A DNA stretch of 5,018 bases from a virus. Its lineage: Duplodnaviria > Heunggongvirae > Uroviricota > Caudoviricetes. Shown here piece after piece: positions 376 to 4,435 of the stretch. The DNA is taken from the IMG/VR virus record IMGVR_UViG_641736116_000018, one strand, 5' to 3'. Below the pieces are notes generated by a model that worked only from the letters and a program-made list of their open reading frames with translations, was not told where the DNA came from and searched no databases. The number at the start of each line of letters is the position of its first letter. Positions within the stretch are counted from its first letter, which is position 1. The position numbers and the translations under genes are program-made.

Positions 376-657
376 ATGACAGAAGCCGAAATACTGGGAT
401 TAATCCGCCGCGTCGCCGGAATCAGCCAGCAGGTTGACGAACAGGCCACGCAGCCGGACAGCATGACCGCAGATAATTATGTGCGTGTAGTGGTGGAGGT
501 GATGCGCCGTGATGGTATCCAGCTTAATGATGTGGATATGCGCAATATACGAACCAGAGTCCTTGAGTTGCTGGCATACCGTCGCCGTTCTCAACAACGG
601 AGGGAGAGCGCGAAAAATACTTACCAGTGGAAGACGCCGGAACGGCTGCGGAGGTAA
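376..657 (+). CDS. Hypothetical small protein, 93 aa, basic Arg-rich C-terminus, function unknown
   Basis: ATG at 376 preceded by a G-rich stretch (GGGGG 367-371). Balanced charged/hydrophobic composition, unlike the overlapping antisense ORF 400..672. Several rare codons (ATA, AGA, AGG, CGA, GGA). No family recognised from sequence alone. Confidence 0.4.
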   Translation: MTEAEILGLIRRVAGISQQVDEQATQPDSMTADNYVRVVVEVMRRDGIQLNDVDMRNIRTRVLELLAYRRRSQQRRESAKNTYQWKTPERLRR

Positions 658-660
658 CTT

Positions 661-690
661 GTTGATATTCACGATAACGCAAAATTGCGT
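661..690. repeat. Composite repeat copy A: GTTGATATT (661-669) + dyad ACGCAAAATTGCGT (677-690)
   Basis: Exact 9-mer GTTGATATT and exact 10-mer core GCAAAATTGC, both recurring at 919-950 and (9-mer only) 963-971. Confidence 0.5.
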
Positions 691-702
691 TGGCTGGTGG
701 GG

Positions 703-722
703 GAGTTGCAGATCTGCAACTC
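703..722. repeat. Perfect 20-bp palindrome GAGTTGCAGATCTGCAACTC
   Basis: The sequence equals its own reverse complement over 20 bp; lies 46 bp downstream of the 93-aa ORF stop. Confidence 0.6.
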
Positions 723-894
723 GATCATGAAATTACGGAAACTACCCGTAGTTTGGGTAGTAAGAGCAACACCCAGATTTTGGGGCTTACTTGCGATACC
801 CAAATAAAGGGTATCGGTGGAAGAAATATCGTTTCTCATATGTGAGTACCGAGGGCGTAATTCCACCTTCGGTTACTCGCTGAACTTAAAGCAA

Positions 895-910
895 AGCGCA
901 AAATTGCGCT
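895..910. repeat. Dyad AGCGCAAAATTGCGCT (second copy of the GCAAAATTGC core, no adjacent GTTGATATT)
   Basis: Exact 10-mer core GCAAAATTGC at 898-907 with complementary flanks. Confidence 0.5.
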
Positions 911-918
911 GATAACTG

Positions 919-950
919 GTTGATATTGTTACAGAGTGCAAAATTGCACT
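919..950. repeat. Composite repeat copy B: GTTGATATT (919-927) + dyad AGTGCAAAATTGCACT (935-950)
   Basis: Same 9-mer and same 10-mer core as copy A, with the same ~18-19 bp offset between them. Confidence 0.5.
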
Positions 951-962
951 ATGGCCTAACCC

Positions 963-992
963 GTTGATATTTCCGGCAACCTCAATTTGAGG
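963..992. repeat. Composite repeat copy C (diverged): GTTGATATT (963-971) + dyad CCTCAATTTGAGG (980-992)
   Basis: Third exact GTTGATATT followed at the same offset by a different but analogous CAATTTG-centred dyad. Confidence 0.4.
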
Positions 993-1267
993 AGATCGGA
1001 AACATCACCCTTCAAATTCTGAATGGTCATAATGACCACGCAGACCATCAAGGCAACCACAACGAACATCGTTACGGTTGGAGCTTTTACCACACTGGGG
1101 AAAAGGTACGCACCTGAATCATCATTACCGTGATCAAGGGTATGTAAAGCCCACCAGCCTGATTAACGTTTAACCGGAAAAAAATTCCGGTAGGTGGGGA
1201 TCCCCATATCGGGGAACATCCACCAGCTTCATAACGGATAGCCGGAAAATGATAACGGTTAAAGCGT

Positions 1268-1332
1268 GTTGATCTTTGTTCGTGGTTGTTCGATATTGTT
1301 CGTGAAACGGTGTAGTTAATGGTGTAGTTAAT
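1268..1332. repeat. Iteron-like direct repeats: GTTGATCTT / GTTCGATATT variants, TTGTTCGTG x2 (1276-1284, 1296-1304), GGTGTAGTTAAT x2 in perfect tandem (1309-1320, 1321-1332)
   Basis: Seen directly; the 12-bp tandem is exact, and the 9-bp repeat recurs at a 20-bp period. Confidence 0.5.
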
Positions 1333-1403
1333 TTCGCTGTTTTTGACAGGGTTGTTATTTGTAACGCAATGAAAAATAAAGACTAATCAATGAAATGTTA
1401 TAA

Positions 1404-1421
1404 ATGATAGTTATCTATCAT
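1404..1421. promoter_or_regulatory. Perfect inverted repeat ATGATAG-TTAT-CTATCAT about 85 bp upstream of the clpS start; candidate operator
   Basis: 7-bp arms exactly reverse-complementary with a 4-bp spacer, in an AT-rich stretch of the clpS 5' region. Confidence 0.3.
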
Positions 1422-4195: not shown

Positions 4196-4347
4196 ATGGG
4201 GTGGAACGGTGAAAACCCTATTTTTGGAGGTGAAGGTAATTTGTTGATAATTAGTGCTGCTGGAAAAGGTAAGGATAAAAAAGGGTGACAGCAGGAAAAT
4301 GAGATGGTTTTGCTTTATTAACAACGGGCTAAACGTGTAGTATTTGA
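4196..4347 (+). promoter_or_regulatory. AT-rich putative CRISPR leader
   Basis: AT-rich segment immediately upstream of the intact repeat. Its position on the side opposite the degenerate terminal repeat fits a leader. Confidence 0.4.
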
Positions 4348-4435
4348 GTTCACTGCCGTACAGGCAGCTTAGAAATTCACTGGTAACATACTCCACCCGC
4401 CCACCATGTTCACTGCCGTACAGGCAGATAAAATG
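4348..4435 (+). CRISPR. Orphan type I-F-style CRISPR mini-array: repeat (4348-4375), 32-nt spacer (4376-4407), degenerate terminal repeat (4408-4435)
   Basis: Repeat 1 GTTCACTGCCGTACAGGCAGCTTAGAAA is the canonical 28-nt I-F (Yersinia-subtype) repeat with the Cas6f hairpin GTTCACTGCCGTACAGGCAG and the CTTAGAAA handle. Repeat 2 keeps the first 20 nt and diverges over the last 8. The spacer is exactly 32 nt, the I-F length. No cas gene in the window. Confidence 0.8.

Follow-up and report, generated by a model that had tools for sequence, protein, structure and literature searches.

Units of an integration host factor consensus box and a covarying palindrome in the terminal spacer of an Escherichia coli phage satellite

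We analyzed a stretch of 5,018 nucleotides recorded in IMG/VR as Caudoviricetes DNA (IMGVR_UViG_641736116_000018; hereafter the window), in which a first-pass annotation made from the letters alone had reported short exact repeats and dyads between positions 661 and 992. These repeats belong to a series of units in which a box matching the consensus of integration host factor (IHF) is followed at a fixed distance by a palindrome with covarying stems, and they form the variable left part of a hairpin-rich, untranslated spacer of ~750 nt at the int-distal end of a phage satellite, which runs from its last open reading frame (ORF93, positions 376-657) to the arm of the phage-type attachment site (attP).

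A terminal satellite spacer built of box-and-hairpin units

Judging from its sequence, the window is the right end of a satellite of ~11 kb of the phage-inducible chromosomal island (PICI) type, integrated in Escherichia coli between cspD/yljB and clpS. E. coli O145:H28 RM12581 matches the opening 1500 bases of the window at 99.8%, and the island of that strain encodes an integrase, a helix-turn-helix (HTH) protein, an Icd-like protein, a primase, SSB, a fusion of a ClpP-like prohead protease with the major capsid protein, and a hypothetical protein of 93 aa; this gene order is that of Gram-negative PICIs. ORF93 with its downstream noncoding DNA also forms the right end of EcCICFT073, an experimentally studied E. 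coli PICI, and of the O157:H7 island, which share one insertion site (roxA-phoQ) and have ORF93 homologs at the equivalent position (locus L002, 13671-13952, and locus L003, 13737-14018, respectively). Similar sequence occurs, as mosaic pieces, in 1681 of 5426 complete E. coli genomes (~31%). A circular sequence of 10,790 bp (NZ_CP148328.1, locus L104), in which late genes, ORF93, spacer, attP and int follow one another, is evidently an excised island of the same family. Since the units lie between the late operon and attP, the order in the excised circle is late operon, array, attP and int, and in the integrated state the spacer separates the late operon from clpS. This circle, listed as a 'plasmid' in PLSDB, carries int, alpA, primase, protease-capsid fusion, DUF1441, ORF93 and an intact attP, with TGTTCG-type repeats in both attP arms (~4 int-proximal and 3 distal) plus a doubled GGTGTAGT motif.

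The 9-mer GTTGATATT has three exact copies in the window (661, 919 and 963), all on the plus strand, against 0.07 expected, and the 10-mer GCAAAATTGC has three (679, 898 and 938) against 0.01; for either word, none of 200 shuffles reached three copies, in agreement with the initial impression that the repeats are far beyond chance. A repeat finder lengthened the 9-mer to a 15-nt box family, TAACNNGTTGATATT, with the members TAACTTGTTGATATT (655), TAACTGGTTGATATT (913) and TAACCCGTTGATATT (957). The 10-mers lie, as had been described, inside dyads, here delimited as the 16-nt sequences AACGCAAAATTGCGTT (676-691), AGCGCAAAATTGCGCT (895-910) and AGTGCAAAATTGCACT (935-950). The shared spacing proposed earlier holds for two copies (18 and 19 nt from 9-mer to 10-mer). 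The third 10-mer dyad (895-910) is part of a fourth unit with the degenerate box TTACTCGCTGAACTT (873-887), and the dyad CCTCAATTTGAGG at 980-992, taken before as an analogue, is the inner stem of a two-tier hairpin (970-1002). The supposed diverged copies near 1268 and 1288 are a different repeat, TTGTTCG, present three times (1276, 1286 and 1296) beside the arm motif of the attachment site. The idea of a modular, non-random repetition of a short conserved box plus a dyad was borne out.

A comparison of 83 related loci (L001-L083) revealed one grammar in the ORF93-to-att spacer of every island: one to seven units, each consisting of the box TAAC-NNN-YTGAT-W-N-TT and then a palindrome at a fixed distance, with motif and spacing conserved among the loci, as the first-pass annotation had required of homologous loci. 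The palindromes abutting the boxes are 14-33 nt long; their geometry is kept and their sequence is free. Type-A units, which include the dyads noticed first, have a stem of 5-7 bp around CAAAAWTG with the arms ACGCA, GCGCA, GTGCA or GCCCA, the opposite arm changing complementarily. Type-B units have a two-tier hairpin of fixed 4-3-5-3-5-3-4 geometry. The window contains four units, the last of type B, with about ten box-less hairpins between and after them (Table 1). Intact forms of the unit 2' subtype (TAACTCGCTGAACTT...) were found in loci L058 and L062. The box-less hairpins at 703-878 are near-identical, up to ~850, in PICIs embedded in helper phages (L004-L018), and the fold of the whole spacer beats that of shuffled sequences on both strands (z = -6.7 and -8.3).

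Table 1. Features of the window from ORF93 to the end of the satellite
Feature	Positions	Strand	Remarks
ORF93, last satellite ORF	376..657	+	93 aa, phrog_1561; its TAA stop is the first three bases of unit 1
Unit 1 (type A)	655..700	+	Box TAACTTGTTGATATTC 655-670; hairpin AACGCAAAATTGCGTT 676-691; Chi GCTGGTGG 693-700
Predicted IHF site of unit 1	655-667	-	TATCAACAAGTTA, consensus match
Six box-less palindromes/hairpins	703-722, 741-761, 760-790, 795-815, 822-836, 844-878		703-722 is a perfect 20-mer; 760-790 is two-tier
Unit 2'	873..912	+	Degenerate box TTACTCGCTGAACTT 873-887, outside the IHF consensus; hairpin AGCGCAAAATTGCGCT 895-910
Unit 3	913..952	+	Box TAACTGGTTGATATTG 913-928; hairpin AGTGCAAAATTGCACT 935-950
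Predicted IHF site of unit 3	913-925	-	TATCAACCAGTTA, consensus match
Unit 4, type B, conserved across genera	957..1002	+	Box TAACCCGTTGATATTT 957-972; covariance model R1 69.9 bits, E 1e-18
Predicted IHF site of unit 4	957-969	-	TATCAACGGGTTA, consensus match
Two-tier hairpin of unit 4	970-1002	+	Outer UUUCCGG/UCGGAAA, 3x3 internal loop, inner CCUCA/UGAGG, loop AUU
PICI-conserved hairpin block	1018..1205		Two-tier 4-3-5-3-5-3-4 at 1018-1044 and 1054-1080; hairpins 1085-1106 and 1173-1191
Palindrome	1196-1205		GGGGATCCCC, within the hairpin block 1018..1205
Chi sites	1151-1158, 1220-1227	-	In or near the hairpin block 1018..1205
Int-distal attachment-site arm	1268..1414	+	TTGTTCG three times 1276-1302; doubled arm motif AACGGTGTAGTTAATGGTGTAGTTAAT 1306-1332; geometry fits PMC10111431
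11-bp identity common to attL/attR	1404-1414	+	ATGATAGTTAT; likely crossover region and island end

Box consensus and stem covariation

The first-pass annotation overlooked that the 9-mer appears to be the core of an IHF site: the reverse complement of the box TAA-NNNN-YTGAT-W (13 nt) is exactly the 13-bp IHF consensus WATCARNNNNTTR (defined in PMC9820253). This consensus has five matches in the window against 0.42 expected, and none of 200 shuffles reached five. Three are the 9-mer boxes, one lies in clpA, and one (TATCAACAAATTA, minus strand, 4237-4249) lies ~100 bp upstream of the first repeat of a type I-F CRISPR array. In the EcCICFT073 locus (L002), 11 matches were counted where 2.1 are expected, and its array contains three of the 11. 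All 27 units of a type-B alignment, which comprises distinct units from E. coli and Xenorhabdus, fit the consensus. The invariance of TAA and TGAT among them is partly by construction, because units were collected only if they had TAA and TGA. No constraint was placed on Y, on the last T of TGAT or on W, and in the alignment Y is only T or C and W only A or T. Three central N positions vary freely, while conservation reaches 90% or more at the first N, the C of TAAC. Thus described, the variation of the box appears confined to what IHF tolerates, and we regard the boxes as predicted IHF sites. With respect to the A/T tract expected upstream of an IHF consensus, the minus strand of this alignment (A1, columns 19-21 and 25-27) has an AAA(A) run directly beside W as well as a TTT run 8-10 nt upstream, which is not the spacing of the lambda H' site.

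The stems were examined in the same alignment, in which 92% of the cells form standard pairs. The covariation score is 0.439; shuffles gave 0.207, with none of 500 as high, and sliding the partner columns gave 0.152 at most, so that the stems are kept by compensatory change. The 100% pairing of the inner stem is partly by construction because this stem served to select the units; its pair types still switch (pair 30:38 among UA, CG and GC; pair 32:36 between CG and AU). The outer stem (YCGR/YCGG), which was not used for selection, is 86% paired, and one of its pairs alternates among GC (10), AU (6) and GU (5). At least eight unrelated pairs of dyad arms were found: ACGCA/TGCGT, GCGCA/TGCGC, GTGCA/TGCAC, GCCCA/TGGGT, CCTCA/TGAGG, CCCCC/GGGGG, CCTGC/GCAGG and CAGCC/GGCTG. 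As the arms vary yet stay complementary, they are not expected to be half-sites of one sequence-specific dimer; covarying arms fit a structure rather than a sequence-specific half-site.

Comparison of the two strands gave a mixed picture. The type-B outer stem is 85.8% paired when read on the plus strand and 57.4% on the minus strand, with 49 G.U against 3 A.C. The T-run behind most of these wobble pairs is at the same time the A/T tract that abuts the IHF consensus. The generic hairpins of the spacer have no strand asymmetry (11 G.T and 11 A.C mismatches), and unit 4 folds better on the minus strand. The earlier suggestion of repeated small RNA hairpin units is compatible with the data.

ORF93 had been put forward as a possible binder of the repeats. 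Its profile searches gave only a weak DUF3140 match in Pfam and a family of unknown function in PHROGs. An AlphaFold2 model consists of three helices (predicted local distance difference test, pLDDT, 66.6) and has no fold match at E < 1, and a PDB profile search was also empty. No HTH or other DNA-binding signature was found in ORF93 by Pfam, PHROGs, PDB profiles or the AlphaFold2 model.

Distribution of the units and neighboring features

In the 83 loci, oriented by ORF93, all 88 unit occurrences are on the plus strand. The number of units varies from one to seven among related E. coli PICIs, including EcCICFT073, and one circular PICI has a single unit. A covariance model derived from the 27-unit alignment, R1, was searched against 252 kb that included three complete islands with chromosomal flanks as a sample of the chromosome: full-length matches (at least 15.9 bits, up to 73) occur only inside these spacers, and matches outside them reach at most 15.8 bits (E >= 0.018). 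R1 has no match in CP4-57 of K-12. An initial scan of genome contigs with the ORF93 peptide gave no match. A pattern scan of 185,579 species-representative genomes yielded 20 matches, which is about the chance number. Six of the 20 are in Xenorhabdus or Morganella, and these are genuine units, near-identical to those described above, some of which have the same inner stems (CCTCAATTTGAGG and CCCCCATTGGGGG). In Xenorhabdus, P4-like islands (Ash, DUF927 primase) carry the units at their end, pointing outward, and no ORF93 homolog was found beside them. The units flank a cargo gene of the Peptidase_C58 (YopT-like) family (L084 472-1890; L098 6442-7278). Interspersed among them is a further type of unit, TTAAC-NNN-TTGYTCTTCTT plus a hairpin, which is outside the IHF consensus. 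The Morganella unit locus (L086 171-2745) contains short Csy1, Csy2 and Csy3 genes (type I-F-like Cas) with about six GTCTACC repeats just upstream.

Searches for a described counterpart were negative within their scope. With Rfam (E <= 1), the window gave no covariance-model match in 650-1400 and elsewhere only tRNA-Ser, CRISPR-DR4 and weak chance matches; an Rfam RNA family was therefore rejected, and the first-pass annotation, which had recognized no known REP, ERIC, attC or iteron family, was right that no catalogued family is matched. Since 640-1340 has no blastn match in 50,697 phage genomes, phage-derived sequence was rejected as well. No description of these units was found in PICI papers or by full-text searches with motif strings or with PICI, IHF and palindromes, and in the PICI literature examined, no analysis of the ~0.5-0.9 kb from the last gene to attP was found. 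Other identities were also discarded. The enterohemorrhagic E. coli small RNA Esr41 maps to OI-43 and not to this island, and CsrA-type GGA enrichment, sigma-54 promoter spacing, hammerhead or K-turn motifs and Ter sites were dismissed by eye as non-matching. Iterons of a replication origin are identical direct repeats beside an initiator gene with an AT-rich unwinding region; the units were rejected as such because only a box of 13-16 nt is conserved and the array is ~4 kb from the primase gene. The functional PICI origin lies next to pri and has been cloned in pri-ori constructs (PMC6092414).

A lambda-type cos site (cosB R elements plus I1), which would directly adjoin cosN, was excluded by searching lambda-type cosN with up to three mismatches, which gave no hit in the array or in the island. 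In EcCICFT073 and the O157 PICI, cosN is upstream of ORF93; in the former, GGGCGGCGACCT is found at L002 12856 (+) and 13595 (-), flanking rpp, whereas the array is at 13950-14160. The cos1 and cos2 sites of EcCICFT073 are known from experiments (PMC6092414, PMC6739421). The island studied here lacks both the lambda-type cosN (GGGCGGCGACCT) and a terminase or Rpp gene. At the position that cos has in EcCICFT073, between the capsid genes and ORF93, the window has the GC-rich ACGGGGCGGGCGGCGCGG followed by an A-run (177-194), perhaps a diverged cos site suited to another helper phage.

At the attachment site, the 17-mer AATGGTGTAGTTAATTT was tried as the att core and rejected: the doubled motif CGGTGTAGTTAATGGTGTAGTTAAT is present in both arms of NZ_CP148328.1, which makes it an arm motif and not the core, and the crossover region of that circle is the host-identical block between the arm motifs. 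From the arm motif (1306-1332) and the identity block (1404-1414), the repeats lie 400-750 bp from the crossover; in related PICIs the attachment arms have a -81/+132 bp geometry (PMC10111431). Arm-type sites of attP have a fixed number and lie within ~150 bp of the crossover; the units were rejected as such on account of their distance and of their copy number of one to seven among islands sharing the doubled arm motif.

The island is itself a mosaic, the part of its spacer from 655 to ~850 being common to helper-embedded PICIs and the remainder to clpS-type PICIs. In the helper-embedded PICIs (L004-L018, located in phage terminase genes), ORF93 is 98-100% identical and the spacer is almost the same as that of the window over its first ~190 nt. 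Similarity then ends sharply inside the hairpin 844-878, which marks a recombination breakpoint in the spacer. The island (L001 7465-18336) is rich in Chi, GCTGGTGG, with six sites on the plus strand and seven on the minus strand in 10.9 kb (~1 per 0.84 kb), several times the density of the E. coli chromosome. In most related islands, a minus-strand Chi inside the block AAGCCCACCAGCCTGATTAAC keeps a distance of 150-173 nt ahead of the arm motif. Such sites may serve as protection against RecBCD or as a recombination stimulus. Beyond the island, clpA and tRNA-Ser enclose a short CRISPR array of type I-F (repeats 4348-4375 and 4408-4435, Rfam CRISPR-DR4). In RM12581 the tRNA-Ser is 176 bp further from clpA than in the window, which suggests that the strain of the window is possibly a close relative with fewer CRISPR spacers.

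Interpretation and comparison with known systems

The existence of the units, their conservation across genera, their covariation, their match to the consensus, their position and their orientation are established by the analyses above. To account for them, we tentatively favor a satellite-specific array similar to BIME-1/RIP elements (bacterial interspersed mosaic elements; repetitive IHF-binding palindromic elements), in which IHF sites fused to structural palindromes would act as punctuation between the late operon and attP/int. IHF, which binds its sites with nanomolar affinity and bends them by about 160 degrees, would occupy each box and bend it. The palindromes would act as structure, either as hairpins formed in vivo in read-through RNA or as cruciform-prone DNA that IHF also binds. 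The array would then buffer or terminate late transcription ahead of attP/int and the flanking host gene, and it would offer repeated homology for the exchange of late-gene and integration modules. The mosaic make-up of the spacer (655 to ~850 as in helper-embedded PICIs, the remainder as in clpS-type PICIs) was counted in favor of this proposal.

Several observations weigh against this proposal. The boxes are assigned to IHF by consensus match, and unit 2' and the TAAC-NNN-TTGTTC units of Xenorhabdus depart from that consensus. Neither an intrinsic terminator nor a strong promoter is predicted in the region. The asymmetry of the outer stem favors a role as RNA or single strand over one as duplex DNA, and the fixed spacing of box and hairpin suggests that both parts act in one molecule or complex, be it DNA or RNA. 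Furthermore, the units fail most defining features of repetitive extragenic palindromic (REP) sequences and BIMEs. IHF also binds four-way junctions (PMC9820253), and thus a duplex or cruciform model is also coherent.

The main rival, though we consider it unlikely, is that the units are a cis-acting structured RNA, namely the 3' untranslated region of the late operon and, in the circle, also a leader into attP/int. In such an RNA, the box would act as a single-stranded motif, and a protein or RNase would recognize the two-tier hairpin; the element could serve 3'-end protection, processing, Rho exclusion or antitermination, with the arginine-rich C-terminus of ORF93 as a candidate binder. The co-orientation of all units with the upstream late operon, the start of the first unit at the ORF93 stop codon, the absence of a predicted terminator between ORF93 and the array, the plus-strand bias of the wobble pairs, the covarying stems and the conserved purine-rich symmetric 3x3 internal loops all speak for this. 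However, the Xenorhabdus units, which lack an ORF93 homolog, point away from the adjacent island genes and are antisense to the intervening cargo gene; the other hairpins of the spacer show no strand asymmetry, Rfam has no match, and a pure RNA model would have to ascribe to chance that the box fits the IHF consensus even at its degenerate positions. Another reading, in which the unit of box and two-tier hairpin is a dedicated cis signal of Enterobacterales phage satellites that is read single-stranded, as RNA or folded DNA, with the IHF-like box as an integral part, seems improbable to us. Such a signal could be a new recombination or exchange site for swapping integration modules and cargo, or a nascent-RNA element that controls read-through of the late operon across attP into int, and does so only in the excised circle. 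Much less credit is due to single-stranded DNA signals in which a hairpin with a 5' guide box is used by a structure-specific enzyme (in the style of attC/IntI, of REP and the REP-associated tyrosine transposase, RAYT, or of IS200-IS605) or for priming or origin function, as cassette-exchange or replication signals. The two-tier hairpin with its symmetric internal loop and 3-nt loop does resemble folded attC or REP, a conserved 5' box adjoins the stem, wobble pairs are biased to the plus strand, and the Xenorhabdus units flank a Peptidase_C58 cargo gene. Yet the island annotation includes no HUH transposase, IntI or RAYT gene, the stems have no AAC/GTT core pair, the units enclose no cargo in the E. 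coli loci, and the published PICI origin lies elsewhere, next to pri (PMC6092414).

Position next to attP invites another explanation, to which we give little weight: the array may be a distal accessory part of the attachment site that loads IHF, and possibly Int or AlpA, and so shapes the recombination complex or its directionality. IHF sites are classic components of attP, the array is always int-distal and points toward the att site in both E. coli and Xenorhabdus, and the variant boxes of Xenorhabdus (TTGTTC) resemble the TTGTTCG repeats of the E. coli att arm. On the other hand, the units lie beyond the conserved arm geometry, islands with one and the same arm motif differ in how many units they have, one circular PICI has a single unit, and palindromes have, to our knowledge, no role in intasomes. 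Slightly less probable still is a neutral or selfish filler, that is, a tolerated recombination junction where palindromic units duplicate and shuffle without benefit to the satellite. Unit number and order do differ among close relatives, and mosaic breakpoints do fall inside the spacer; nevertheless, box and hairpin geometry is conserved across Escherichia, Xenorhabdus and Morganella while the stems covary, the orientation is invariant, and short palindromes are normally selected against. The main idea of the first-pass annotation, repeated operators or half-sites for a dimeric regulator such as the 376-657 product, finds support in the GCAAAATTGC dyads, of which three are exact, all similarly spaced from a conserved box and adjacent to a small basic ORF. 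It now appears very improbable, since the dyad arms change by compensatory substitution into at least eight unrelated sequences across units and loci, ORF93 has no recognizable DNA-binding fold, and units exist in Xenorhabdus without it.

PICIs are widespread drivers of gene transfer and phage interference, and in EcCICFT073, a well-studied system, the array offers a concrete and testable cis element. Such an array could account for the insulation of late transcription from int and host genes, as well as for the clustering of module exchange among satellites at this point. It also carries the old BIME/RIP question, why IHF sites are paired with palindromes, over to mobile elements in which deletion phenotypes are easily scored.

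Among known systems, integron attC sites share with the units a folded imperfect palindrome with two stems around an unpaired center and a small variable loop, conservation of structure over sequence, and arrays beside a tyrosine-recombinase site. Unlike the units, which are ~31 nt long, attC sites have RYYYAAC/GTTRRRY cores that make up the outer stem, have extrahelical bases, span 57 nt or more, are served by IntI and flank gene cassettes, none of which lie between the E. coli units. Identity with attC was rejected, the outer stems being YCGR/YCGG and the integrase being annotated as a generic tyrosine recombinase, with no IntI seen. The IHF sites of lambdoid attP and cosB and of CRISPR leaders have the same 13-bp consensus WATCARNNNNTTR as the satellite boxes, but they are single and precisely placed in a defined nucleoprotein complex, whereas the satellite boxes recur in one to seven copies, every copy being joined to a palindrome, and are located 400-750 bp away from the crossover, on the opposite side of ORF93 from the cos sites of relatives. 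Boundary or linker sequences of lambdoid phages are likewise short conserved sequences at module junctions with clustered mosaic breakpoints, and the late-gene and att/int modules are joined inside the spacer as at such junctions; we know of no boundary sequence that combines an IHF consensus with covarying hairpins.

The closest system is BIME-1/RIP (RIB, reiterative ihf BIME). In BIME-1 elements an IHF site accompanies palindromes, and REPs influence the termination of transcription (PMC2817692). Like the units, BIME-1/RIP elements are extragenic, join imperfect palindromes of 20-40 nt to an IHF consensus site and cluster, as repeats of variable number, where transcription units end at their 3' side, and their function, architectural or termination-related, is incompletely understood (PMC2817692). 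The hairpins at 676-691, 895-910, 935-950 and 970-1002 (16-35 nt) agree with the imperfect extragenic palindrome of ~20-40 nt that characterizes REP and BIME. A strict REP/BIME identity was rejected. None of the units has the 5' GTAG/GTGG tetranucleotide of REPs (PMC2817692), their 5' box being TAAC-NNN-YTGATW. REPs share one stem consensus species-wide and BIMEs alternate in orientation, whereas the satellite stems differ from unit to unit and the units are all in direct orientation. REPs number >100 copies per genome, dispersed in core intergenic regions, whereas the satellite units are few per genome and, in the 252-kb scan, confined to islands, and no RAYT (TnpA-REP) or transposase is annotated in the island. 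The units are thus a new variation on the theme of an IHF site combined with an extragenic palindrome.

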